A stretch of DNA of 64,000 nucleotides from an uncultured bacterium (GTDB taxonomy: Bacteria > Patescibacteriota > Patescibacteriia > UBA1558 > GWA2-36-10). Positions 2,897 to 49,492 of the stretch are shown here, in pieces. A program made the position numbers and the translations under genes. The notes beneath the pieces were generated by a model. It searched no databases. It was not told the origin of the DNA and saw only the letters and a list, made by a program, of their open reading frames with translations. The stretch's first letter is position 1; every line of letters begins with the position of its first letter. Where the stretch lies: positions 2,740 to 66,739 of the forward strand of contig CAINYB010000001.1 in the NCBI GenBank assembly GCA_903855135.1. The letters are read 5' to 3'.

Positions 2897-2980
2897 AGAA
2901 GCAAAAAAATAATTTAAATAGCTGAGTAGATTATAACAAACTATTAGCTTTTACTCAAACAAAAATAGCCCTTTAAAAAA

Positions 2981-3056
2981 TACCCCCTCTGCCACTTCCG
3001 CCGAAGGCGGAAGCTGTCTTCTCCCCCTAAATTAGGGGGAGACCGAGAGGGGGTAC
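2981..3056. repeat. GC-rich three-way-junction palindromic element, subfamily A (outer stem taccccctct/agagggggta enclosing two hairpins, one of them ctccccctaaattagggggag)
   Basis: Seen directly in the sequence. A near reverse-complement copy lies at 36457-36536. Confidence 0.7.
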
Positions 3057-13630: not shown

Positions 13631-13954
13631 TTACATTTTAATTTCAATATCCACACCAGCTGGAAGATTCAAGTTTTGTAAAGTATCAATGGTTTGCGGA
13701 GTTGAATTGATGATATCTAACATTCTTTTGTGAATTCTCATTTCATATTGATCACGAGAATTTTTGTGCACAAAAGTAGAACGCAATACAGTAAACTTTT
13801 TCTTTTCTGTAGGCAAAGGAATAGGTCCCAAAATCTTAGCACCACTACGTTCAACCGCCTCAATGATGGTCTTGGTAGCTTGGTCAATGATCTTGTGATC
13901 ATAGGCGCGAATCTTGATGCGAATTCTTGACTGGATTTCTTCTTTAGCTTGCAT
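13631..13954 (-). CDS. rpsJ: 30S ribosomal protein S10
   Basis: Homology by inspection. Confidence 0.9.
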   Translation of the reverse strand: MQAKEEIQSRIRIKIRAYDHKIIDQATKTIIEAVERSGAKILGPIPLPTEKKKFTVLRSTFVHKNSRDQYEMRIHKRMLDIINSTPQTIDTLQNLNLPAGVDIEIKM

Positions 13955-14008
13955 GGAAAATGAATTTAAATTAATAATTGTTAAATTGCTTATTTTTATA
14001 TTCTTTTC

Positions 14009-14040
14009 CCCTGCCAGGCCCCCGAAGGGGCATGGCAGAG
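14009..14040 (-). other. GC-rich hairpin downstream of tuf (ctgccaggcccccgaaggggcatggcag); no clear U-tract
   Basis: Palindrome seen directly in the sequence. Confidence 0.5.
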
Positions 14041-14052
14041 AAAGGAAAATAT

Positions 14053-15240
14053 TTATTTAATGATTTTGGTCACTACACCAGCACCGACTGTACGTCCACC
14101 TTCGCGGATAGCAAATCTAGATTTTTCTTCTAGAGCGACTGGGTTGATTAATTTGATGTTCAAATTAATAGTGTCTCCTGGCATAACCATTTCTGTACCT
14201 TCTGGTAAAATAACTTCACCAGTTACGTCAGTTGTACGGATATAGAATTGTGGTTTATAGCCTTTGAAAAATGGAGTATGACGACCACCTTCATCTTTAC
14301 TTAAAATATAAGTTTCAGCTGTAAACTCAGTATGAGGAGTAATAGTGCCTGGCTTGGCTAATACCTGACCACGCTCTACATCTTCCTTTTTGGTACCACG
14401 TAATAACAAACCAGCATTGTCGCCAGCGCGACCTTCTTCTAATTGTTTGTTAAACATTTCAATACCAGTTACTACAGTTTTAGCAGTTGGTCTCAAACCA
14501 ACTAATTCAACTTCTTCGTTGATCTTGATCACACCTCTTTCGATACGACCAGTAACTACAGTACCACGGCCTTCAATTGAGAAAATGTCTTCAATTGGCA
14601 TCAAGAAAGTATGTTCAGTATCACGTTTTGGATCTGGAATATAATCATCCAAAGCTTTGACTAAATCCATGATTGGTTGACCAGCGTCACCAGTTGGGTC
14701 GTTCAAAGCTTTTAAGGCTGAGCCACGAATTATAGGGGTAGCATCGCCAGGGAATTCATATTTCTTTAATAAATCACGAATTTCTTCTTCTACTAAATCG
14801 ATTAATTCTGGATCATCTACTTGATCAACTTTGTTCAAGAAAACAATAATATAAGGCACACCAACTTGACGAGCAAGCAAGATGTGTTCACGAGTTTGAG
14901 GCATAGGACCATCAGTGGCAGAAACCACTAAAACAGCACCATCCATCTGAGCAGCACCAGTAATCATGTTTTTGACATAGTCAGCATGACCTGGACAGTC
15001 AACGTGAGCATAGTGACGAGCATCACTTTCATATTCAACGTGAGCAGTTGCGATAGTAATACCACGCTCTTTTTCTTCTGGAGCGTTGTCAATTTGGTCA
15101 ACATCTTTGTGTTGAGCAACACCACCTCTAGCTGATAAAACTTTTAAGATAGCGGCGGTTAAGGTAGTTTTACCATGATCAACGTGACCAATGGTACCAA
15201 CATTGACATGGACTTTTTCTCTTTTAAAAACTTCTGCCAT
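14053..15240 (-). CDS. tuf: elongation factor Tu
   Basis: [14 protein letters not shown] and NKVD motifs. Confidence 0.95.
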
Positions 15241-15353
15241 TTTCTTTTATTCTCCTTACGATAGCAATCCCTTCAAATATTCAGGATTTTTATGATCCAG
15301 CTATCTTGAATTTAATTATTTATTAATTATTTTAATTATTTAAAACACAAAGA

Positions 15354-15382
15354 TTATAGCACGGTCTTTTGATTTTGGCAAG
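15354..15382 (-). promoter_or_regulatory. sigma70-type tuf promoter: -35 TTGCCA, 17-nt spacer, extended -10 TGcTATAAT; about 110-nt leader with AAGGAGA Shine-Dalgarno
   Basis: Reverse complement of attatagcacggtcttttgattttggcaa. Confidence 0.5.
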
Positions 15383-15438
15383 AGCCTAAAAACCCCAGGC
15401 TAAATGTGCCTATTTTGTGCTAATATTAGCCAAAAAGA

Positions 15439-15819
15439 TTAATTATCCCCCACTGGTTCTAAATAGTACTTTTCTTCCTCTGAACTCAAGCCTGGCTCTG
15501 AATTTTCAGCACTTTCCGGTTTTTTCTCTAAATCTAAGCTTTTCACCTGGCCACTAGCGACTGTTTGCTCGTCGATTTTGAACTGATCAAGATTATAATC
15601 ATTGCTGGCCTGGACAGATTTCCAGATGGCAATATCCCGATTTATCTTACTCAAAAGCTCATCTTCGCTCAAATCATGAACAGCGACATTGTTCGTCAAG
15701 AGTCTTTCATAGTCTTTTAGGCTCATAACGACATAAGGATCATGATTTTCGGAAACCACAATCATTTTGTCCCCTGTTTTGGTCACCAAAGCTAAAACTT
15801 GGTCTAATTTTTTATACAT
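15439..15819 (-). CDS. Phd/YefM-antitoxin-like N-terminal domain protein with acidic C-terminal tail; no adjacent toxin
   Basis: GDKMIVVSENHDPYVVMSLKDYERLL resembles the Phd/YefM beta-strand motif. Confidence 0.45.
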   Translation of the reverse strand: MYKKLDQVLALVTKTGDKMIVVSENHDPYVVMSLKDYERLLTNNVAVHDLSEDELLSKINRDIAIWKSVQASNDYNLDQFKIDEQTVASGQVKSLDLEKKPESAENSEPGLSSEEEKYYLEPVGDN

Positions 15820-15880
15820 AAAATTTAGCTTAAATTTACACCAAGCTTATAAAAAATATGGGAGTTTGTCAAATATTTAC

Positions 15881-15982
15881 AACCCCTTCTGTCCTTGCGG
15901 ACATCTTCCCCTTCGTAAGGGGAAGAATTGTCACAAAAGCTTCAATTCTCCTCCCCTTACGAAGGGGAGGCTGGGAGGGGTT
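15881..15982. repeat. three-way-junction palindromic element, subfamily B (aacccc...ctccccttcgtaaggggaag...ctccccttacgaaggggag...gggaggggtt)
   Basis: Seen directly. Related copies lie at 18983-19027 (half copy), 19403-19494 and 31769-31875. Confidence 0.7.
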
Positions 15983-16034
15983 ATGATAAATTTCCATAAA
16001 ATACCCCCGCGAAGCGAGGATATTTGTAAGCTAA

Positions 16035-17165
16035 TTATTTATTTAAAATAAACTCTAGATAAACTTTAGTACCTTTATTTTCTTGACTTTCTAGCCAAAC
16101 TTTGGCTCCTGGATGCTTGTCTATCACCTCTTTGACGATAAATAAACCCAAGCCAGAACCATCAGTATAAGCATTTTTAGCATTCTTGGCTCGCGCAAAT
16201 TTATTAAAAACTTTAGCTTGATCAGCTTTTGGGATGCCGATACCAGTGTCTTGGATAGTCAGTAAAACTTTATCAACATTTTTAGCCAGGGTCACCGTCA
16301 CTGCACCTTGGATAGTATATTTAATCGCATTGTCTAAAATATGATCAATGGTTTCGCCTAAATATTTCAAACTACCCCGAATCAACATTGATTCATTTGG
16401 TTTTTGCCAAACAAGCTGTAATTTTTTTGCTTGTGCATCAAAAATATGCTCAGAAATAATCTTGTTTACTAAATCTGTTAAATCAATTTGATCATCAGTG
16501 GTAATATTCATTTCGCTACCAGTTTCCATCTCTGAGGCCATCAAAATATCATTGATAATTTCTTCTAGCTTAATGCTTTTTTGATACATGCCGTCAATAA
16601 ATTTACTACGTTCAACTGGCTTCATCTTATCCATGTCACCATCACGCATCATCGCTAATGTTCCTCTGATCACCGAGGTCGGTGTTCTTAGCTGATGAGA
16701 AGCAATGTCTAAAAAATCAGAACGCATTTCTACTAATTTTAGCATGCGTTCAGCCTTGGCTTTAATTTCCTTAGTTTGCTCAGCCACCTTATCCTCTAAT
16801 TTAGAAGATAAAGTTTTTAATTCCTCTTTAGCTTTTTTTTCAAAAAAATTAGACTTAATAATTTTTTCTGTACTTTTATTAAAAAAATACCCGTAAATAA
16901 TAACAATCGCAAAAACTATGATGATGGGTGCAAAAGATAATTTTTTATCTAAGATATAAAAGAGAGCTAAGGCAAAACAAATAAGCAACGCACTAATCAC
17001 TTGATATTGCAAAAATAAACAATGACGAAATCTTAATTCGCAATATTGACAACGTGTATAGGGCAAAGAATTTAAATTTTTTACTAACCAACAATTTTTA
17101 TTTAAATATGTTTCTCCGCCAATAGCTTTCACTTGCTTATTATTTGTTATTTGTTGTTTAGACAT
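16035..17165 (-). CDS. sensor histidine kinase (HisKA + HATPase_c) with Cys-rich N-terminal segment and two TM helices
   Basis: H-box ASHQLRTPT plus N, G1 and G2 boxes. The N-terminus carries C-x14-C-x2-C...H-C. Confidence 0.8.
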   Translation of the reverse strand: MSKQQITNNKQVKAIGGETYLNKNCWLVKNLNSLPYTRCQYCELRFRHCLFLQYQVISALLICFALALFYILDKKLSFAPIIIVFAIVIIYGYFFNKSTEKIIKSNFFEKKAKEELKTLSSKLEDKVAEQTKEIKAKAERMLKLVEMRSDFLDIASHQLRTPTSVIRGTLAMMRDGDMDKMKPVERSKFIDGMYQKSIKLEEIINDILMASEMETGSEMNITTDDQIDLTDLVNKIISEHIFDAQAKKLQLVWQKPNESMLIRGSLKYLGETIDHILDNAIKYTIQGAVTVTLAKNVDKVLLTIQDTGIGIPKADQAKVFNKFARAKNAKNAYTDGSGLGLFIVKEVIDKHPGAKVWLESQENKGTKVYLEFILNK

Positions 17166-17583
17166 TTGTTTGTTTACTAAAAAGCCTCTTGAAAGTTACA
17201 TACATCAAAGTAGCCACACAAAAACCAACTAAACAAGCCAAAAAAATCATCATATCAACGACTAAAATATAAATCCAAGCAAAATTAGTCATCTGAGTAT
17301 ACTGCAAAAGTAAAAAACCAATCAACAATAAAAATCCAGTTGCCCCAGAAACAAAATTTAATTCGCCAGAATCTTTTTGAATTGGTGTATAATTTTTTTT
17401 AGTTAGCATAGCATGAATCTGATAAGGTAGATTGAGCTTTACAGAAAAAGCTCCTAAAATAGTAGCAATCGCCACAAATAACACTAGCCATTTGTTGTGT
17501 AAAAAAAAGGCAGCTAAAACTAAAATTGCATAAAGAGCGCGAGAAAACTTAAGTGAACGATCATAGATTGAACAAACTTGCAT
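17158..17583 (-). CDS. small integral membrane protein (4 TM), unknown function
   Basis: Hydrophobic helices. It shares an 8-nt overlap with the kinase start. Confidence 0.5.
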   Translation of the reverse strand: MQVCSIYDRSLKFSRALYAILVLAAFFLHNKWLVLFVAIATILGAFSVKLNLPYQIHAMLTKKNYTPIQKDSGELNFVSGATGFLLLIGFLLLQYTQMTNFAWIYILVVDMMIFLACLVGFCVATLMYVTFKRLFSKQTNV

Positions 17584-17589
17584 AAATTT

Positions 17590-18939
17590 TTATTTATTAG
17601 TTAAAATTTTTTTTACTGCCAAACAAGCTTTTTTAACATCATTTAAATCATTATAAATATAAAAACTTAAACGACAACTAGCTGGCGGATTTAATTTATA
17701 ATAATGATGAGCTAAAGTTGCACAATGACAACCAGCGCGAGATTCTATTCCCATTTTATTTAAATTTTCAGCAATTTTAAAAGGACTAAATTGAGGATGA
17801 TTAAAAGCTACTAGCGATGTTCTCTTACTCGGGTTTTTTGGCCCATAAATATTCAGACCTTCTATACTTTGTAAAATATTTAAAGCTTCTGTCATCAAAT
17901 CTTTTTCATGCTCGGAAATATTAGCCATAGCTTTTTTTACATCCGCTAAAGCTAATTTTTTATCTGACATAAAATAAACATTTTTGCCCGGCCACAAAGC
18001 AAAATCTATCAACAACCTAATACTTTGAGCGGATAAAATAGTGCCCAAAATATTTGGCGTACCAGCCGTAAATTTCCATGGTAAAACATTGTAGCCAACT
18101 TTAGTTGGTGTCACTTGTCCGTCAGCAATCATATCACCACCGTAAAGAAAAGGTTTCATACCTAAAAGTAATTTTTCCTTAGCATACAAAGCTCCTACAC
18201 CAAAAGGAGCTAACATTTTATGAAATGACCAAACAAAAAAATCGATATCAAGAGCTTTGACGTCGATAAAAATATTTGGCGCTGTTTGCGCCCCATCGAT
18301 TAAAAGATATGACCTTTTTTCACCACTTGGCTGTTTATAGCCACTTAAGTCTGCGATTTCTTTAATTTTTTTGATAGGATTTTTAGTGCCTAAAAAATTA
18401 GACGCTCCCGTACAACAAACTAATTTTGTCCTATTATCTACCAATGACTTAAGGTGCTCTAGATCAAGCTCGCCAGTGTTTTTGTCAAATTTAGCTAAAC
18501 GACATTCTACTTTGATACCAAATTTTGGTAAAATTTCTTTACATAGACCATACCAAGGAACATAATTTGAATTATGCTCCATAAACGTCGTCACTACATT
18601 GTCACCAGTTTTGAATTCCGTGAGCAAAGAATACATGACCGCATTGATAGCTTCTGTGGTATTGCGATACAAGATAATATTCTTTACTGAAGGCGCGTTG
18701 ATAAATTGAGCAATTGTTTCATAAGCTGCTTCAAATTCTTTAGTGGTAGCCATAGAAGCATCTGATTGACCACGATGGACATTATCATACTTGACGCTTA
18801 ACTTTTTTAAAAGATCTAAAAGCTGTACTGGAATTTGAGTGCTAGCAGCATTATTAGAAACAATCCTACCAGCCTTGATAGCTGGAAAAAACTTCCGAAT
18901 TTTATTTGTATTTAGCATAAAATATAAAAACAATAACAT
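17590..18939 (-). CDS. class V aminotransferase-fold PLP enzyme, SufS/cysteine desulfurase-like
   Basis: HRGQS..., the SFHK PLP-lysine motif, and GCHCAT near the C-terminus. Confidence 0.7.
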   Translation of the reverse strand: MLLFLYFMLNTNKIRKFFPAIKAGRIVSNNAASTQIPVQLLDLLKKLSVKYDNVHRGQSDASMATTKEFEAAYETIAQFINAPSVKNIILYRNTTEAINAVMYSLLTEFKTGDNVVTTFMEHNSNYVPWYGLCKEILPKFGIKVECRLAKFDKNTGELDLEHLKSLVDNRTKLVCCTGASNFLGTKNPIKKIKEIADLSGYKQPSGEKRSYLLIDGAQTAPNIFIDVKALDIDFFVWSFHKMLAPFGVGALYAKEKLLLGMKPFLYGGDMIADGQVTPTKVGYNVLPWKFTAGTPNILGTILSAQSIRLLIDFALWPGKNVYFMSDKKLALADVKKAMANISEHEKDLMTEALNILQSIEGLNIYGPKNPSKRTSLVAFNHPQFSPFKIAENLNKMGIESRAGCHCATLAHHYYKLNPPASCRLSFYIYNDLNDVKKACLAVKKILTNK

Positions 18940-18973
18940 TATACAATATATTCTGATTTAAGACAAAAACACC

Positions 18974-19381
18974 CTACAAATAACCCCTTCTGTCCTCACG
19001 GACATCTCCCCCTTCGTAAGGGGGAGAAAATAAACTTTCCTTAATTCTCTCTAAAACAATTTCTAAATTATTAATTACTTCAATATTAGTAAAACGTAAA
19101 ACTTTAAGGCCTAAAGCTTCAAGTTTATTTTGACGATAATCATCATATTTAATTTCTTCTTTTTTTAAATGAATACTACCATCAACTTCAATTACTAGCT
19201 TTAATTTTGGACAATAAAAATCGACTACAAATGAGTCGATACTAAATTGACGTTTAAAACGATAGCCTTGTACTTTTTTATTTTTTAATTCTGACCATAA
19301 AAGTAATTCTGCGTTAGTCATTTTGCTTCTTAACTGACGACGCCTAAGTATTAAGCTATTTTTATTAAATAAAAAAGTCAT
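18974..19381 (-). CDS. DUF559 endonuclease-domain protein (Vsr-like restriction-endonuclease fold); C-terminal about 17 codons are read through a repeat element
   Basis: The core FVVDFYCPKLKLVIEVDG...D...K motif is typical of DUF559. Confidence 0.65.
   Translation of the reverse strand: MTFLFNKNSLILRRRQLRSKMTNAELLLWSELKNKKVQGYRFKRQFSIDSFVVDFYCPKLKLVIEVDGSIHLKKEEIKYDDYRQNKLEALGLKVLRFTNIEVINNLEIVLERIKESLFSPPYEGGDVREDRRGYL
18983..19027. repeat. half copy of the subfamily-B palindromic element, overlapping the 3' end of the DUF559 gene
   Basis: aaccccttctgtcctcacggacatctcccccttcgtaagggggag. Confidence 0.6.
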
Positions 19382-19402
19382 TTTTGCTTTTCTTCTTCAC
19401 TT

Positions 19403-19494
19403 AACCCCCTCTTTATCTCCCCCTTCGTAAGGGGGAGAAATATCACAAAAGTTTGAGTGCTCCTCCCCTTACGAAGGGGAGGTTGGGAGGGGTT
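19403..19494. repeat. full copy of the subfamily-B three-way-junction palindromic element, immediately upstream of the DUF559 gene
   Basis: aaccccctct...ctcccccttcgtaagggggag...ctccccttacgaaggggagg...gggaggggtt. Confidence 0.7.
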
Positions 19495-19584
19495 ATTTTT
19501 CTAAAGCTTAAAACTCTAAAAATCTTTTGTCAAACACCACTGTTGACTAACAAACCATAAAAAGTAATATTTATAATATATTAA

Positions 19585-19803
19585 ATGAAATCTAAAAAAA
19601 TAATTAAATGGTTGATTAATTATATGGCGTGGATAATAACAATAGTAATAATATTTGTTCTTTGGATTGAGTTCAAACTTGAAAAATTAAACGATCGTGC
19701 CATAAAAATGGCAGATTTATCTGCGCAAGCATTCAACGAGATAGAAAATCGCCTTATAAACCTTGAATCAAGGGTAAATGAGCTTGAAAACACAAGAAGA
19801 TAA
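19585..19803 (+). CDS. small protein (72 aa): N-terminal TM helix plus coiled coil
   Basis: It is the only plus-strand ORF here and is followed by a bidirectional terminator. Confidence 0.4.
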   Translation: MKSKKIIKWLINYMAWIITIVIIFVLWIEFKLEKLNDRAIKMADLSAQAFNEIENRLINLESRVNELENTRR

Positions 19804-19843
19804 TTTTTAAAAAAACAAAAACCAGTTAAATAATCACCAACAA

Positions 19844-19868
19844 AAACACCCCGTTAGGGGTGTTTTAA
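19844..19868. terminator. bidirectional rho-independent terminator (aaaaacaccccgttaggggtgtttt) serving fusA and the small plus-strand ORF
   Basis: GC hairpin flanked by A-runs and T-runs. Confidence 0.7.
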
Positions 19869-19876
19869 ATATTATT

Positions 19877-42118: not shown

Positions 42119-45100
42119 TTAATTTTGATTATTATTGTTGTTCATTGGCTGCTGCCAGAGACAAAGTAAAGGAAGGGTGTGATCGCACCGTGGCCATGTA
42201 TTTTCATTCATAGATAAAAATGATCCTCCACTCCAAGTTATGTCAGGATTAGAATTAGGATTAGGACTAATCTTACTGGTCTCACCTAAACGACCCCGGT
42301 TCACACAATCATTTATATATCTAATGTTTTCAAAACTATTCGTATAATCATGACAAAAATTCTCCTCAGAATCCATGTTGCAAATTTCACCACTCATAGC
42401 AATACCAGGATAATAAATGCTTCCATCATATTTGGTACCACTCCAAAAAATGCAACCTTGCGCTGTGCAATCATTTATTGGATTATTCATGGCAGTTTGC
42501 TCACCATTTTCAAGTCTATTAATCGCATTATCTAATGTCGTATCTGTTAAATCCGTCCAATCATCGGCTATCACAGTGCCATTAGTCATCTTATACTCTA
42601 AAGAATTATGTGCTAATCTACTGCCAGCCGAAGTATCAAAGTCAGATAGCCAAGCTTTCCAAATACCTTCTCTAGCTAGGCTATTCTGTGAATCTGCATG
42701 CCATTGACATAAATAATCAGCTGCTGCCAAACCATCAGAGCCACTATAGCCCTTATTTGTTGCTGCGCCCAACAAATTACCATTATATGCAGTGGAAGTC
42801 AGAAATATTGTGGCCCCATCTGACTCGGCTATTTCAGAACAATTACTTTGATTAAAATTACAAGACGCATTACAACTTAAACTACCTTGATCCCAACCAA
42901 AATCTTGGCAAGTTTGGTTGTTTAAATTTGAACCATCGCATTGCTCTGGAGGGTTAATCACCCCATTACCACAGTTGGGTGGTGGTGGTGGCAGTGACTC
43001 TTCATCAGAACAATCGCTAAGATCGAAATTACATTGATTACAACTTAAATTACCATAATCATAATCAAAAGCAGTGCAATCTTTACCCGCTAAGTTAGTA
43101 GTATCACATTCCTCACTGGGATTTATCACTCCATCACCACAACTAGCTGGGCTGGCCACACTGCCATCGCTGCAAACTGGCGTACAAGTATTACAAGTGG
43201 CTGTCTGACCATCCAAACACGAGTACTCCTCTACAACCGTGTTGTTTCCCTCACATGTTTCATAAGGGTCATCTAAAATATGATCACCGCAATAGCCACC
43301 ACACATAGCCTCGGTCAAAATCGGCCATGGCTCATACCAAGTACATTCTATGGAGTTACCATCTGCATCCAAAGAGCCGGCTGGGTAACAGCCACCTAAA
43401 TGCTCATTCCACCAATCCTGGTTATTATCAGGCTCTGGAGTTGTATCACATAAATTTTGGAAACCACCATCGCACTCTTCTGCACCATCAACAACGCCAT
43501 TACCACAACCCAAACTACCCTGTGGTAAACCATTAAAAGAAGCGTTGCATTGTGGATTATTTAAATGAATATGTTCATCTAAGTCTGGAATAGTATAATT
43601 ATTAGGATAGACAAATTCAAAGTTAGCATCTAAAGAATAATTATAACCACCCTCATTTTTATAAAAATAAATACTCGAATTTAAAGGACAGGTGAATCTA
43701 TTGATTTCATCATTCCAACAAGTTTCTTCATCAAAACCATCTGGGCAAGCACTAAAGCGATTCAATGGGTCTACTGGCAATGACATACCTAAAACGTTAG
43801 AAAATTCTTGTTGCCAAGATGGCCAAGGGCTAACTGCTATGTGAGGTACATAAGTACCGGCATTCAATAATGGATAATAAGGCACACAATCACCCCCACT
43901 TGGACACTGACTATCTTGCGTGCAACTAATATTAGCATTATTATTACAGAATTTATAATTATTACTATAGGCTTTTAATTTATTTTGAATACTTAATAAA
44001 TCACCTAAGCGCTGATTATCGCGACGTAATTTATCACCATCAGCGTCACAATTTCCTTGATTTGGGCAATCAAATTTACTAGAACAACTAATACTAGCAT
44101 CGCTACTACAAACTCCCATATTAGAAACATTTGTACTCAAATGTAAATTAGACAACATTTGACTGACAATATCGGCTGTGGACTCTCTTGCTCCAATGCT
44201 ATAAGAAATCATGTAAATATTACTATATACACTACCACCATTTACATCCACCACATTCAAGGCGTTAATATAGATAGTATTACCAACTTTAAGTGCTGGG
44301 TAGCCATCTATCACTTGCGCTTGGCCTGCTATTTCTGGATTTGGTGCATATTTTGTATACCAGTCACTCAAGGCTAAATGTTCTTCATTTTTCATCACTC
44401 GAACGCCTATTACATCCAAAGAAGAAGCTTTAGCAGTGACCGCAATTTCATTAGTCGCCGCTGATTCTCCACCCATGTTATAAGCTGTCACACGATAGCT
44501 ATAGACTTCGTTATTTATAACATTGTTATCCGTAAAATTAATTGGATTTTGATTACCGCTATCAACAGTTGCTATTTTATACCAATCAACTGTGCTCGAT
44601 TTACGATAAATATTAAAACCATCTTCGTTAGTAGCATTATCTGTCCAAGCTAATTTTACGCCATCAGCACTATTATCAGCTAAAAGTAAACTAGTAGGCG
44701 CACTTGGGATAGCAATTGCAGCTAAAACAGTATTTTTAACTTTAGCAAATAAATTTTGCCACCAATAATTTTTTGTATTTTCCTCACTTTTTGCAATAAC
44801 TGTTTGTTTAGGATCAACGATAAAAATAAATTCTCTTAAAGTTTGACCATTAGGTGGCAAAATATTTGGGGAACCTAAATATGGTAATAAGGGCTCATTC
44901 ACTCGACCAGAATCTTGACAATAATAGGTACTAAAATTATACAAATCATTAAAATCATAAGGAAAATTACTAGCTTGTCTTGGCCACGGATGTTCGCATA
45001 AAAACAAATCTACTTGTGCACTACCCAGTGCGCTACCAGCTAGCTCATCGCTAACTTCAACTATTAAGTTAGTTTGACCATTTTTATTTAGCGCTGTAGC

Positions 45101-48100
45101 TAAAATAGTTTGCTGGTTATCACTTTCTAAGTCTAAAAAGTCATTGTTTTCCTGCCAAGCATAATCAGTCATCACCAATGGTGATCCACTAGGATCATAA
45201 GCTATCGCTGTATAACTATGTTGATTGCCACTCAAAGCATCAGCCACATCACCCAGACAATTACTTCTACTACAACTAAATAAATCTGGATTAGGAGCAA
45301 CAGTGACAAAACTCACGCGACACATTTGATTATTTGTCTCAAAAAGCCAAATGTAAGCGTCCATACTACCATTATCATCGCTATCAAAATTTAATTGTTC
45401 AGTAACCAAATTAACACCCATATTACTTTTTACTCTTCCAGAGACTAAAGATAAATACTCAGTACTAGCTTGTAATGGTGAAACTGGATATAAAAACGCT
45501 TTGCTTTTGTCACTATTATTAGTAAAGACAAAATTTGTTTCCACCGGGCAATACCACTGGAAATCTTTCTTGACACAATAACCAGGTAATTCTTCACTGG
45601 CAGATTTTTTATATAAACGCATACCTGCTTCTAGGCTAGCACGATCCATCAAAGTATTAAATTGCACTTCTATGGCTGAATTTAAACAAGCTGGAGTTTG
45701 CGGTTTTGGGGTTGGGACTATTTTTGGAGCTGTATAAACTAAAGTATCTCCAAAATCTACTTCTAATATTGCCTGATCTTCTAATGTATAACTAGACAAA
45801 GAGGCATTAACACGCGTCATACCTTCTGCTTGTGGCCTAATGTCAGCACGATAAATATTTGATGGTATTAAATCAGCTATCCCAGCAGGATTCAAACTCC
45901 AATTATATGGGCTATACGACATTGGGTTTAAAATTTGACCATGAGGGTCACAGGCGTTAGCTGTGCTATATGGAAAAGCTGAATAATTAATCATCGAATC
46001 ATCAGTGGCTAAATAATAGCTTGGGTCAATCTCCAAAGACGTAGGCGTACAAGCCCCATCTTTATTGGTTTGAAAACTCCAGCTAAAAGGTGCGCTGATT
46101 TTATAACCAGCAATATTTTTTAACTCTTGTTTTAACTCTACTTTATAATATGTTTCAGGAATAAAATCACTATGCAAAATAGCGACTCTACGACCATCTA
46201 CCGAAACATCAAAACTAGTAACTAAATTAGCACCAGTAAGTAAAGCACAAGTTGAATCTGTACATTTTTTTATAACAATATTATCATACAAATTACTTTC
46301 TGAAATAGCTGTATTAAAATCTACCCAAACTAAAGCATTTGTACAGGAGCTATTACAATTTGGACCATAATCAACAACTTCTAAGACAGCATCTTTTATC
46401 TTTGGATAAGCATAAGACATAAGGCCGTTTAATTGAGCTTTGACTGTAACTGTAGCTGGTGTACTATTTTCTGTCACCTGTGTGCCCTCAACTTTTACTT
46501 TAGCAATATTAGTATTCTGGGTTCTGAACCAGCCAATATTTGCCTTATCGGCGTTTGAGCCCTCTAAAGACCAAGCCGACCAATTATAATTACTACCACA
46601 AATATTACAATTTCCCCCAATTGGGCTAGCACTAAACTCTCTTTCATGACCAACATAAATATCTGCACTCGGACTATCAGTCGGAGTCACTGCTATGCTG
46701 ACGACTTGGCAAAGATTTTCTTGTGCTCTAAAATGCCAATCATAAGTAGCACCAGACCAAGTCTCACTACCACTAGCTTTATTAAACTCTCCTAAAGCTA
46801 CTTTATACCAACGATTAGGTGTTAAATTTATTCCGGGATTTAAAACAAAACCTTCTTGATTACTATTATGATTAATAATCGTGAGATTAACTGCTATATT
46901 TTCCACACAATCCGCCGAATTAAAAGCACCGCCAGTATTACAAGCAAATAATTTCAAATTACTAGTAGTATTAAAATCTGCATCTTCAACATCAGCGTTA
47001 AACATACCCGTGATATTTGTATCTAAATAAGCGTCGGTTGCGCCTGGCCAAGGAGAAGGTGAAGAAAGATTATGAACAGCTGGATCACAAGCAAGCTCTT
47101 GCAAAGAAAATGGATCAGCAGCAGTGGTGATTGTCCAAGAATAGCTACAAGACAAATCTGCTGGGCAATGACCAAGTGGCGCGCAATAGTTACCAGTTGC
47201 TTCTTGACAACATTCATTACCAGACACACATTGAGTGTTATTAGTGCAAGTTGCCACTGAAAAATTCAAGCCATTGCTGTCTTGAGCACCAACTCTAACT
47301 TTAGTAGGACCAGTCACCGCTCCATTAGGTACCCTGACATTAATCAATTGATCACTCCAAGAATTAATCTCGCTTGAGACTCCACTACTAAAATATACAT
47401 GATCGCTAACATTACCAAAATTATCACCATATAAAGTGACATCAAAAACACCATTGGCTGGACCATTATTTGGGTCCATAAAACACAAGCCTGGACCAGG
47501 AGCACCAATGCTCATATTAAAATTATAGGCATTACTTTGCTCTGAGTCTGAACTACGTATAACTTTGATTTGATAAGGGCCCGATGCCAAATTAGGAGCT
47601 TTGACAACGATGCTATCATTGCGCCAATAATTAGCTAAACATTGAGCTGGAAAATCAAAATCACCCAAGTCAAAAGTACCATCTGGTTTAATGAACCTTA
47701 CGCTACCAGCAATATTACCAAAATTACTACCTATAATAGTTAAATATTGCCCAGCTGGTGCATTATCTGGGTTTATTGAATTGATAATCGGTGCGCCGCC
47801 ACCGGCTACCTCAACACTAAATGGTAGCTCATTACTACTTTTATCAGCAGTATTCTTGAACCAAACACTAAGCTCACCAGCAGATAAATTCGGAACTACT
47901 AAATTAGCTTTTTGAGGATTATCATAAGAAAATGTTCCATTTACTCCGCCAAAAAAGGCACTATCTGTATTATTAAAATTAAAACCATGAGCAACAACTG
48001 CTTCACCAAAACTACCAGAAGTTGGCTCTAATTTACACAAACTAGGTGCTTCTTCGCCAGAATCATTAAAAATCTTAGAATTACTCTCTCTTTCATCTAC

Positions 48101-49492
48101 ATGTCGCACAAAAATGTTAGCACTGGTATCACGAACTTCAGCTGGAACTACTATAACGATTAAATTATCACTCCAATAGTCTGTACAAGCCGAATTTACG
48201 TCATGTGGATCTATACCAAACTTCTCATTACCATCTGCACCTTCAAAAACTACTCGACCGCCACTAGAGCCAAATCCCGAACCATAAACACTAACAATAG
48301 AGCCCTCTTTAGATATTTCTGGACTTATTCTAGTGATTACTGGCCCATCACTTTCAGTGGCTGCACTAAGACAAAAATTTTCATCCACACAAGCATTAGC
48401 CGCACAACAGCCAGACGCACAGTCATTTGGGCCATTGTCACACAAAACATTAAAATCTTCCGGTGCTGATTGTATCTCATTCACTTCCACAAACAGATCC
48501 CCAGACAAAGCATTCATAGGCACAATGGCATTGGTAATTTTAGTATCTGTCCACGTACCAATACTACCAAAACGATTCGATTGCCAAACGTTACCGTCCC
48601 AATTAAAAATATCAACAAAACCAGAATCACCAAAGCCAATACCCTCTATCATGATACCTTCACCACGACGTTGAGTATTTGGCGTCACGCAAGCAATGCC
48701 TGGACCAGGCTCGCCCTCTCTGACTTCAAAAGTAGCTAAATCTGGGTAAGAGCCTTCTTTATTACTAGCAGTATTAATTTTTATCCGATAATTGCCCAAA
48801 GCCACGTTAGGTACAATGGCTTTAATGCGAAAATAGTTATTTGGGCGATTATTAAGACGATTCCAAGCAGCTTGACCATTGCAGTTAATCAGACTAGCTT
48901 CTTGAATCACACCACTACCATCAAATTTTACTTTACTATTTACCGCATTATAAGTTTCAAAATTCCAACCTTCAATAGTAATATATTGACCAATAGTAGC
49001 ACTATTAGCATTTGGTTTAACTTTACAAATTCTAACTGAACCATCATCTGGTGCTGGACAATCTGGAGGAACTACAATCGGATTAATAATAGTACCACCA
49101 TTGTTATTATTACTATTGGGATTAGTGGCCTCATATAATTTATTCAAAACAAAACTAGCGATCGCATAAGCAGATAAAATAATCACCAAGCCGATCACCG
49201 CACTAACAATAATACCTTTAGCAGTTTTTATTTTTTCTTCATCACCACGAGAAGTCATCCATAAATAACCAGCATATAGAATCAAGACAACAGCCAAGAC
49301 TCCCAAAAAACCTAAAAATATATTAATAATATTAGCAATCACCTGCTTTAGGTCTGACTGAGCCAGATTGACTCCAGCGTTTGTCAGATCATTTACTCCA
49401 GTCACATCATTACTTTGGGCTAAAACTAAATTGGCTTTAAGGAGAATTAAAGTCAGAAATGAAAGTAGAGACCAAAAAATTTTTTTATTCAT
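42119..49492 (-). CDS. giant (2457 aa) cell-surface protein: signal peptide + VirB2/TrbC-pilin-like two-helix anchor, ~6 IPT/TIG-like beta-sandwich domains, Cys-rich linkers, FN3 domain, 4 Myxococcus-type cysteine-rich repeats (CGNGxxDxxEECD), C-terminal DUF1554/lectin-like domain
   Basis: One uninterrupted 7.4-kb ORF. Domain motifs: GFG/GSGFG IPT signatures, LAWTDNATNEDGFNIYRK (FN3), CGNGVVDGAEECDGG, and ATIFLTSTAYNGNLLG...ADYLC. Confidence 0.8.
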   Translation of the reverse strand: MNKKIFWSLLSFLTLILLKANLVLAQSNDVTGVNDLTNAGVNLAQSDLKQVIANIINIFLGFLGVLAVVLILYAGYLWMTSRGDEEKIKTAKGIIVSAVIGLVIILSAYAIASFVLNKLYEATNPNSNNNNGGTIINPIVVPPDCPAPDDGSVRICKVKPNANSATIGQYITIEGWNFETYNAVNSKVKFDGSGVIQEASLINCNGQAAWNRLNNRPNNYFRIKAIVPNVALGNYRIKINTASNKEGSYPDLATFEVREGEPGPGIACVTPNTQRRGEGIMIEGIGFGDSGFVDIFNWDGNVWQSNRFGSIGTWTDTKITNAIVPMNALSGDLFVEVNEIQSAPEDFNVLCDNGPNDCASGCCAANACVDENFCLSAATESDGPVITRISPEISKEGSIVSVYGSGFGSSGGRVVFEGADGNEKFGIDPHDVNSACTDYWSDNLIVIVVPAEVRDTSANIFVRHVDERESNSKIFNDSGEEAPSLCKLEPTSGSFGEAVVAHGFNFNNTDSAFFGGVNGTFSYDNPQKANLVVPNLSAGELSVWFKNTADKSSNELPFSVEVAGGGAPIINSINPDNAPAGQYLTIIGSNFGNIAGSVRFIKPDGTFDLGDFDFPAQCLANYWRNDSIVVKAPNLASGPYQIKVIRSSDSEQSNAYNFNMSIGAPGPGLCFMDPNNGPANGVFDVTLYGDNFGNVSDHVYFSSGVSSEINSWSDQLINVRVPNGAVTGPTKVRVGAQDSNGLNFSVATCTNNTQCVSGNECCQEATGNYCAPLGHCPADLSCSYSWTITTAADPFSLQELACDPAVHNLSSPSPWPGATDAYLDTNITGMFNADVEDADFNTTSNLKLFACNTGGAFNSADCVENIAVNLTIINHNSNQEGFVLNPGINLTPNRWYKVALGEFNKASGSETWSGATYDWHFRAQENLCQVVSIAVTPTDSPSADIYVGHEREFSASPIGGNCNICGSNYNWSAWSLEGSNADKANIGWFRTQNTNIAKVKVEGTQVTENSTPATVTVKAQLNGLMSYAYPKIKDAVLEVVDYGPNCNSSCTNALVWVDFNTAISESNLYDNIVIKKCTDSTCALLTGANLVTSFDVSVDGRRVAILHSDFIPETYYKVELKQELKNIAGYKISAPFSWSFQTNKDGACTPTSLEIDPSYYLATDDSMINYSAFPYSTANACDPHGQILNPMSYSPYNWSLNPAGIADLIPSNIYRADIRPQAEGMTRVNASLSSYTLEDQAILEVDFGDTLVYTAPKIVPTPKPQTPACLNSAIEVQFNTLMDRASLEAGMRLYKKSASEELPGYCVKKDFQWYCPVETNFVFTNNSDKSKAFLYPVSPLQASTEYLSLVSGRVKSNMGVNLVTEQLNFDSDDNGSMDAYIWLFETNNQMCRVSFVTVAPNPDLFSCSRSNCLGDVADALSGNQHSYTAIAYDPSGSPLVMTDYAWQENNDFLDLESDNQQTILATALNKNGQTNLIVEVSDELAGSALGSAQVDLFLCEHPWPRQASNFPYDFNDLYNFSTYYCQDSGRVNEPLLPYLGSPNILPPNGQTLREFIFIVDPKQTVIAKSEENTKNYWWQNLFAKVKNTVLAAIAIPSAPTSLLLADNSADGVKLAWTDNATNEDGFNIYRKSSTVDWYKIATVDSGNQNPINFTDNNVINNEVYSYRVTAYNMGGESAATNEIAVTAKASSLDVIGVRVMKNEEHLALSDWYTKYAPNPEIAGQAQVIDGYPALKVGNTIYINALNVVDVNGGSVYSNIYMISYSIGARESTADIVSQMLSNLHLSTNVSNMGVCSSDASISCSSKFDCPNQGNCDADGDKLRRDNQRLGDLLSIQNKLKAYSNNYKFCNNNANISCTQDSQCPSGGDCVPYYPLLNAGTYVPHIAVSPWPSWQQEFSNVLGMSLPVDPLNRFSACPDGFDEETCWNDEINRFTCPLNSSIYFYKNEGGYNYSLDANFEFVYPNNYTIPDLDEHIHLNNPQCNASFNGLPQGSLGCGNGVVDGAEECDGGFQNLCDTTPEPDNNQDWWNEHLGGCYPAGSLDADGNSIECTWYEPWPILTEAMCGGYCGDHILDDPYETCEGNNTVVEEYSCLDGQTATCNTCTPVCSDGSVASPASCGDGVINPSEECDTTNLAGKDCTAFDYDYGNLSCNQCNFDLSDCSDEESLPPPPPNCGNGVINPPEQCDGSNLNNQTCQDFGWDQGSLSCNASCNFNQSNCSEIAESDGATIFLTSTAYNGNLLGAATNKGYSGSDGLAAADYLCQWHADSQNSLAREGIWKAWLSDFDTSAGSRLAHNSLEYKMTNGTVIADDWTDLTDTTLDNAINRLENGEQTAMNNPINDCTAQGCIFWSGTKYDGSIYYPGIAMSGEICNMDSEENFCHDYTNSFENIRYINDCVNRGRLGETSKISPNPNSNPDITWSGGSFLSMNENTWPRCDHTLPLLCLWQQPMNNNNNQN

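Follow-up and report, generated by a model that had tools for sequence, protein, structure and literature searches.

A gene for a small nuclease of the DUF559 family, located between fusA and tuf on a 64-kb segment of a Patescibacteria genome, was found to be embedded in short palindromic repeats that recur at other intergenic sites of the same segment, and this link between gene and repeat extends well beyond it. The segment (64,000 nucleotides; hereafter, the window) belongs to an AT-rich, Parcubacteria-type genome and carries the whole str/S10/spc region on its minus strand. Judged from sequence comparison, the 4,636 bp that separate fusA (stop at 19877) from tuf (start at 15240) form a mosaic of three ages and not a single insertion, where the recent, mobile-type material would comprise only the ~0.5-kb DUF559 unit abutted by palindromic elements and one solo element. 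We consider it probable that this mosaic contains a functional pair of nuclease and repeat that resembles the REPIN-RAYT systems. The layering of the interval, the pattern of presence and absence among relatives, the architecture of the repeat motif, and the statistical association of gene and repeat can all be read directly from the sequences. The elements (listed without strand) and the nuclease gene are positioned in the window as follows.

15881-15984: element A, a solo palindromic doublet of two inverted triplex-motif halves with terminal inverted repeats (fold z = -8.8)
18982-19028: element B, a half copy (L-half: hairpin, mini-hairpin, terminal GGGGTTA), 91% to element A
19402-19496: element C, a full palindromic doublet, 89% to element A, ending 20 nt upstream of the DUF559 start codon
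2978-3056: further element copy between secY and adk (from detector and folding)
31768-31875: further element copy between a small coiled-coil gene and prfA (from detector and folding)
36456-36535: further element copy beside the nrdR stop codon (from detector)
18974-19381, minus strand: DUF559 (Vsr-fold PD-(D/E)XK) nuclease gene, 135 aa (PF04480, 1.7e-32, 111.9 bits against a cut-off of 20.6 bits)

A full element spans 80 to 108 nt and consists of two hairpins bounded by terminal inverted repeats of the form TA(A)CCCC(C)TC...GAGGGG(G)T(T)A, with each half composed of a CTCCCCC pyrimidine block, a loop, GGGGGAG, a short loop, and a mirror purine block, GAGGGGG. A detector for this three-block layout (a pyrimidine block, its complement, and the mirror of the purine block, with short loops) returned matches in the window at 3021, 15950, 19405, 19462, 31771, and 36459, and none in 20 shuffles, while the elements were computed to fold as single strands with z = -4.8 to -8.8 relative to shuffled sequence. 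Because the detector matched element copies only, with 0 of 20 shuffles giving a match, and because the folding is strong, the elements are not a product of chance. The 64 kb contain six such sites, all of them intergenic and five of the six doublets, and the coordinates proposed in the initial annotation agreed with ours to within 1-2 nt. The copy at 2978-3056 sits within the otherwise tightly packed spc ribosomal-protein operon, with CTTTAAAAA on both sides. Rfam yielded only sub-threshold look-alikes of microRNA precursors, which we attribute to the long hairpin and rejected. By their layout, the elements appear to be the same kind of repeat as BoxC/PIT/TM, in a different sequence family.

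The DUF559 gene reads into one of these elements, as had been noticed at the outset: Residues 118-135 (LFSPPYEGGDVREDRRGYL) and the stop codon are encoded by half element B. The nearest solved structure is 3HRL, an uncharacterised protein of N. gonorrhoeae (4.5e-16), and the residues D54, E65, D67, H71, and R96 are invariant in 25 DUF559 homologues. Between the window copy and those on contigs L089 and L099, the ratio of nonsynonymous to synonymous substitution rates (dN/dS) amounted to 0.10-0.24. Since the catalytic residues are invariant and dN/dS lies in this range, the gene is alive, being intact and under purifying selection, with a predicted nuclease activity. PADLOC made no defence-system assignment and gave only weak nuclease-domain matches, and a profile comparison of DUF559 gave weak matches to homing-endonuclease families. 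The exact window protein occurs in a single genomic context across 11 contigs, and near-identical contigs from several metagenomes keep the window arrangement. Contigs L083 and L084 end at element C. More generally, many DUF559 homologues lie on contigs shorter than 2 kb, and the contigs that carry this DUF559 often end within the flanking element; such short contigs are consistent with assembly breaks at the repeats.

Outside the species, the three closest DUF559 homologues all lie between the same hairpins, in two other chromosomal slots. On contig L089, the slot between PSP1 and GAPDH holds a full element, a short leader, the DUF559 open reading frame (ORF), and a second full element; the protein is 95% identical to that of the window, and the unit is ~90% identical in DNA (90-93% across PSP1/GAPDH contigs). 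In another strain (contig L099), the same slot has an element with a single hairpin, followed by the ORF, whose end is fused to a half element just as in the window. The third homologue (L094, 61% identical) occupies a slot between gyrA and ruvB, where a half element is followed by the ORF, whose stop codon falls within TAACCCCTCCC, and then by the other half. The content of the PSP1/GAPDH slot varies among relatives (L089 2101-2686 versus L181 2593-3959), being either the DUF559 unit, a pair of genes for 287 and 105 aa, or a gene for 80 aa. With relatives holding other genes there, neither insertion boundaries nor a target site could be defined in this slot from GAPDH homologues. In L089, PSP1 terminates at the TAA that belongs to the terminal repeat of the element. 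The sequence that follows the second element of L089 was considered as the remnant of a DUF559 start and was rejected, as it is the conserved GAPDH promoter region.

The association between DUF559 and repeats was quantified on 80 unrelated metagenomic loci (41-55% protein identity) that had been selected solely by coding-sequence pattern. GC-rich perfect hairpins occurred in 73 of the 107 intergenic regions adjoining DUF559 versus 6 of the 64 other regions in the same 80 loci (Fisher p = 9e-15), and the cognate upstream and downstream flanks resembled each other above the 95th percentile of non-cognate pairs at 45 of 70 loci. The three-block motif was located within 200 nt upstream of DUF559 at 48 of 78 loci, within 200 nt downstream at 43 of 76, and within 200 nt on either side at 56 of 74, as against a density of 0.013 per 200 nt elsewhere in the 80 DUF559 loci and a single site in 1.41 Mb of control sequence, namely, 80 tuf loci without DUF559 that were obtained from species-representative genomes by an EF-Tu scan. 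The upstream motif lay a median of 17 nt from the projected first codon of DUF559, and the ORF entered or passed the start of the downstream motif at 31 of 42 loci. The sequences of the blocks vary by lineage (CCCCTCC, TCCCCCT, CCTCTCC, and others). More distant DUF559 genes on viral-classified contigs had the motif nearby in 25 of 63 cases, and the tails of many distant DUF559 proteins (N- or C-terminal PSLVRRG, PSLRKRE, or PPLIKGDQGG) are translated GC-rich hairpins. DUF559 genes are thus flanked by triplex motifs far beyond chance. Together with the similar unit in the PSP1/GAPDH slot, this association bears out the initial proposal that DUF559 and the repeats belong together.

BoxC/PIT/TM repeats were reportedly described by Bergler in 1992 and by Hoyne and Maher in 2000 and 2002. 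Enterobacteria, cyanobacteria, and Neisseria are rich in them, and we know of no mobilising enzyme for this class, known since 1992. DUF559, likewise, is a very large family for which a structure has been solved but, to our knowledge, no role is known. In E. coli, the TM family (TMECO) has the consensus CCCTCNCCC-N3-6-GGGNGAGGG-N3-GGGNGAGGG, and its 23 copies in MG1655, five pairs of which are inverted doublets, are strictly intergenic, with loci that are unusually rearranged between strains (PMC4666352). Holder et al. (2015) noted that no mobility functions had ever been found near TMECO sites, and cite the 1992 envM gene-sequence paper as one of two early BoxC reports (PMC4666352). The TMECO family is present in all 5,426 complete E. 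coli genomes, at a median of 17 places per genome. In K-12, the DUF559 gene ycjD (1,351,407-1,351,760) is followed, 168 nt after its stop, by TMECO no. 9 (1,351,204-1,351,239), and the chance of such proximity to a given gene is ~0.002 for 18 TMECO loci in 4.6 Mb. The fabI-ycjD spacer (L180, NC_000913.3, 4240-4420) has, in the stretch from ycjD to TMECO no. 9, an incomplete second copy of the terminal ~50 nt of ycjD, whose own C-terminus closes with a degenerate CCCTCTCCC...GAGGGGG hairpin. The gene across the spacer from ycjD, fabI, is the former envM. No published link of DUF559 or ycjD to BoxC, PIT, TM, repetitive extragenic palindromic (REP), or miniature inverted-repeat transposable element (MITE) sequences was found in the searchable literature, which leaves out most subscription journals. 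We put forward tentatively, at somewhat less than even odds, the idea that in many bacterial phyla the BoxC/PIT/TM repeats have YcjD-type DUF559 nucleases as their cognate enzymes.

To place the unit in time, the remainder of the fusA-tuf interval has to be considered, which comprises the following features.

14053-15240, minus strand: tuf (EF-Tu, 395 aa), from its ORF; 82% identical to the closest species-representative genomes
15381-15353, minus strand: tuf promoter-like site TTGCCA-17-TG-TATAAT (11 of 12 positions plus the extended -10 TG)
15439-15819, minus strand: Phd/YefM-like small acidic protein, 126 aa (Pfam 24.8 bits, below the 29.8-bit cut-off)
16035-17165, minus strand: sensor histidine kinase with Cys-rich N-terminus (HisKA and HATPase_c domains)
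17158-17583, minus strand: DUF4395 membrane protein (PF14340, 1.2e-10)
17590-18939, minus strand: SufS-family class-V aminotransferase, cysteine desulfurase-like (PF00266 1.1e-89, TIGR01979)
18966-18938, minus strand: SufS operon promoter-like site TTGTCT-17-TATAAT, at the start of the block conserved with L085 and L086
19585-19803, plus strand: 72-aa ORF with a transmembrane segment and coiled coil (no significant family)
19843-19866, no strand: bidirectional terminator-like hairpin 3' of fusA (10-bp stem, T tracts on both sides)
19877-21979, minus strand: fusA (EF-G), from its ORF; a 700-aa product is called in other assemblies

The closest tuf in the EF-Tu scan was 82% identical; as no species-representative genome exceeded this value, the junction was compared on metagenome contigs. 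Contig L085, with 86-91% nucleotide identity to the window, has the order fusA, a gene for a 157-aa secreted protein on the opposite strand, SufS, DUF4395, histidine kinase, Phd-like gene, and tuf, and L086 has fusA, the same small secreted-protein gene, and then SufS, DUF4395, and the histidine kinase. Neither DUF559 nor any palindromic hairpin copy was found in L085 and L086, including all three L085 element sites, and element A is absent from the orthologous spacer between the histidine kinase and Phd-like genes of L085. Window positions 18969-19874 are replaced in both contigs by an unrelated gene, with the alignment resuming at window position 18968. The 72-aa ORF is specific to this species in this slot, where L085 and L086 hold the unrelated secreted-protein gene (157-159 aa). 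Because L085 and L086 hold the triad of SufS, DUF4395, and histidine kinase genes and have neither DUF559 nor hairpins, the triad stood 3' of fusA before the repeats arrived, and the species-specific parts of the interval, on this comparison, are 18969-19874 and the element at 15881-15984 only. The triad is also conserved in L087 and L088, two Buchananbacteria contigs where it has another position and a response regulator comes after it, and homologues of the SufS-like protein number in the thousands across Parcubacteria, at 75-80% identity.

The Phd-like gene is likewise old at its position. A homologue lies directly upstream of tuf in eight Patescibacteria loci (L001, L002, L003, L005, L006, L007, L020, and L063), and these ORFs have the motifs KKTGDRIIV..D..YV.M.L.EYE and INRDIA.WK (INRDIAIWK) in common, which makes the gene an old tuf neighbour in Patescibacteria that is ancestral there. 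An assignment as type II antitoxin was rejected in view of the sub-threshold profile (24.8 versus 29.8 bits, with a match to the N-terminal 45 aa only), the absence of any toxin ORF beside the gene, and the conserved position next to tuf; the protein looks like a phylum-wide, uncharacterised tuf companion rather than an antitoxin. The boundary between fusA and the Phd-like gene is filled by two large prepilin-like genes in L002 (2726-5519) and by two small opposite-strand genes in L005 (7543-8156). As unrelated material thus occupies it in other genomes, this operon boundary is a recurrent insertion point in Patescibacteria. No repeats were present in any of the tuf loci of other Patescibacteria.

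Within the 80 tuf loci, fusA and tuf are mostly ~0.1 kb apart outside Patescibacteria, whereas in most Patescibacteria loci other inserts keep the two genes 0.4-3.6 kb apart. The window lacks the canonical str arrangement with tuf immediately 3' of fusA, yet a split str operon with lineage-typical gene content is, by these loci, old and phylum-typical; it is ordinary for Patescibacteria and of little weight in itself. The initial annotation had described a fusA-tuf separation of ~4.6 kb with six genes, which we confirm at 4,636 bp with that gene content, and had explained it as a repeat-mediated cassette in a highly conserved junction. In that proposal, the recent and mobile-looking character of the DUF559 gene and elements stands, whereas the 4.6 kb are not one cassette, and high conservation of the junction does not hold for this phylum. 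Comparison with relatives cuts both ways, since L085 is without DUF559 and elements, as the proposal would have it, but already has the triad and the Phd-like gene; gene order is kept in relatives without repeats over ~3.7 of the 4.6 kb, the outcome that the initial annotation had itself named as its refutation. The tuf promoter-like site, which had been linked to the uncoupling from fusA, is real and is the top match in 13900-20100, but it is not tied to this insertion because it lies inside the block common to L085, which is 91% identical there. The gene that had been described as a protein with four transmembrane segments was retained, with its identity corrected to DUF4395. GC skew, a check suggested at the outset, and GC content gave no separation of the inserted genes from the genes around them, the membrane-protein genes being as AT-rich as DUF559, and were discarded.

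Some further observations concern the neighbouring genes. Mechanical calling gives a fusA ORF of 737 aa from a TTG start (19877-22090), and elsewhere the product has 700 aa from the ATG before MARVHPLEK; the ATG at ~21979 is the more likely start, as the 700-aa form better fits EF-G homologues. The N-terminal cysteines of the histidine kinase (C25, C39, C42, and C49) follow the pattern CX13CX2CX6C, and the closest response-regulator gene that was found, at 26953-27342, is an orphan. Two small coiled-coil paralogue genes (24109-24479 and 31353-31702) are 87-90% identical including their upstream regions, and one of the two holds tandem 21-nt repeats; the paralogue at 31353-31702 adjoins the element at 31768-31875, and L089 contains a related promoter-proximal stretch. 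On the minus strand, 42119-49492 is a single ORF of 2,457 aa, with internal families of direct repeats at ~42869-43507.

The explanation that we favor combines these layers with an activity of DUF559 on the repeats. The Phd-like gene and tuf would represent an old transcription unit that is widespread in Patescibacteria; the SufS/DUF4395/histidine kinase core operon would have been placed behind fusA before the split from the repeat-free relatives; and the ~0.5-kb DUF559 unit, together with the solo element between the histidine kinase and Phd-like genes, would be the recent addition. In this last layer, a DUF559 nuclease gene, seen at one locus in this species, would be embedded in its cognate short palindromic repeats. 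We infer that DUF559 recognises the folded repeat, as a hairpin, cruciform, or triplex, and that it may nick or cut it, whereupon host repair or recombination could spread or reshuffle the repeats, occasionally with the gene, into intergenic slots. A selected nuclease gene between lineage-specific repeats, solo copies of these elsewhere, slots that vary, and absence from a close relative together make up the signature of REPIN-RAYT systems.

Several points weigh against this explanation. A consistent target-site duplication was not found when the flanks of the elements in the window were compared; a direct repeat of 9 nt (CTTTAAAAA) flanks the copy at 2978-3056 alone and is partly element sequence itself. 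Neither a precise empty site nor an excision scar was found in the fusA/SufS or PSP1/GAPDH slots, where relatives hold unrelated genes. About a quarter of the DUF559 loci (of 74) show no motif, and proteins beside the same block type are somewhat more alike, a trend that is confounded by host phylogeny. One of the 18 E. coli repeat loci adjoins ycjD, which fits the expectation for a RAYT-like gene and is weak alone, and the gene and repeat counts for this organism refer to the 64-kb window plus contigs rather than a whole genome. We know of no biochemical activity on such repeat DNA for a DUF559 protein. A PD-(D/E)XK nuclease cannot itself rejoin DNA, and any copying step would therefore depend on host functions. 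Furthermore, Holder et al. reported no common function among the genes that flank TMECO (PMC4666352).

Among the alternatives, entry of the whole 4.6 kb as a single cassette, by recombination between repeats at a conserved fusA-tuf junction, could draw on the elements near both ends of the SufS-histidine kinase block (15881-15984 and 18982-19028) and on the adjacency of fusA and tuf in most non-Patescibacteria loci. The data already contradict it: L085 and L086 have fusA followed by SufS-DUF4395-histidine kinase and no repeats, the position of the Phd-like gene beside tuf is conserved, the gene for the SufS-like protein belongs to the core (75-80% conserved) rather than to accessory cargo, and the repeats are absent from every tuf locus of other Patescibacteria. 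A rescue would require the precise loss of all three elements in both L085 and L086, which makes this account very improbable. We give as little credence to the absence of any functional link, in which palindromes and small accessory genes would merely share dispensable hot spots, or the hairpins would serve as terminators or insulators. It is true that both slots examined are hot spots of gene turnover, and that PIT elements of E. coli are without promoter or terminator activity or a common neighbouring function; yet hairpins are 7-fold rarer in the remaining intergenic regions of the 80 DUF559 loci, the 1.41 Mb of control loci contain one motif, the flanks carry the specific three-block motif and not T-tailed terminators, and other lineages show the pattern again with repeat sequences of their own.

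Two further alternatives grant DUF559 an activity and assign it another role. As a free-standing homing endonuclease, it would cut empty doublets and be copied in by break repair, with the repeats spreading by other means. Vsr-fold homing endonucleases exist, the profile of DUF559 weakly matches homing-endonuclease families, the unit is found in more than one slot among related genomes, and the ORF is nested between the two halves of one doublet in L099, L116, L120, and L124. In L089, L094, L101, L118, and L122, however, the ORF lies between two full doublets or outward-facing halves, three other doublets in the window are unoccupied, and no pair of occupied and empty alleles with precise boundaries was found, relatives holding unrelated genes in both slots compared; we judge this role unlikely. 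Slightly more doubtful to us is a host-beneficial, structure-specific repair nuclease that limits repeat instability, with the repeats merely seeded or retained locally. Such a role would agree with the purifying selection on the gene, with the presence of ycjD in the E. coli K-12 reference and of the repeat family in all 5,426 E. coli genomes, with the local genome instability tied to TM repeats (PMC4666352), and with the repair nickase Vsr as a relative. By itself, it does not explain the packing at a median of 17 nt or the frequent lack of an own stop codon, nor does it explain the differing slots in close relatives and the absence from L085.

If the partnership of DUF559 with its repeats is real, it would be a second gene-repeat partnership of the REPIN-RAYT type, built on a PD-(D/E)XK nuclease, implying that repeat-nuclease partnerships of this type arose more than once. 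It would also provide a first function for DUF559 and an account of how BoxC/PIT/TM repeats spread or cause local instability, thereby joining two long-standing orphans in a question that is directly testable in E. coli K-12. For annotation, the pairing would explain the odd "PPLxKGG"-type tails of DUF559 proteins as well as the contig breaks at these genes.

Compared with known systems, the window elements resemble BoxC/PIT/TM repeats in their three-block layout, their multicopy and dispersed intergenic distribution, their frequent inverted doublets with short spacer, and the rearrangement of their loci between close relatives. They differ in sequence, with CTCCCCC/GGGGGAG/GAGGGGG in place of the E. 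coli CCCTCNCCC/GGGNGAGGG/GGGNGAGGG, so that they do not match TMECO; in their AT-rich Patescibacteria host; in the extra mini-hairpin of some copies; and in the DUF559 gene that adjoins them here and the motif at 56 of 74 other loci, whereas no associated mobility gene has been reported for the published repeats. The triplex, here, denotes an architecture read from sequence, and the folding of the hairpins is computed only. YcjD and the N. gonorrhoeae protein 3HRL belong to the same Pfam family as the window DUF559 and have the catalytic motif in common with it, and ycjD has a BoxC/TMECO copy just downstream, although both proteins are only ~35-40% identical to it. YcjD has been listed only as a predicted nuclease (PMC1189080), and we found no published function for YcjD or 3HRL, nor a DUF559 nuclease activity, in the searchable literature. 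MITEs share with the elements a length of 80-108 nt, terminal inverted repeats, long hairpins, and a presence that varies between close relatives, but the elements lack a consistent target-site duplication and a related transposase-bearing insertion sequence, and the associated gene is a nuclease only.

Homing endonucleases with a Vsr fold are established (EDxHD family, I-Bth0305I; PMC2677866 and PMC3239194), and a survey of PD-(D/E)XK proteins groups DUF559 with Vsr and I-Bth0305I (PMC3424549). The likeness extends to a related catalytic fold, a small gene of selfish behavior, and the weak profile similarity; unlike these enzymes, the window gene is associated with no intron, intein, or split host gene, its flanks are repeats rather than a conserved protein-coding target, and a precise occupied/empty pair is lacking. 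With REPIN-RAYT systems, the unit shares dispersed intergenic palindromic doublets, lineage-specific repeats, and a nuclease gene flanked by cognate repeats, an arrangement that is present in the window, L089, L094, and L099, and statistically in the 80 loci. The foot of the window hairpin, however, has no GTAG or CGTC tag, the window repeats possess a third mirror block, and DUF559 is a PD-(D/E)XK Vsr-fold nuclease and not an HUH Y1 (IS200/IS605-like) transposase. Because of this different enzyme, the DUF559-repeat unit is an analogue of REPIN-RAYT systems and not a member.

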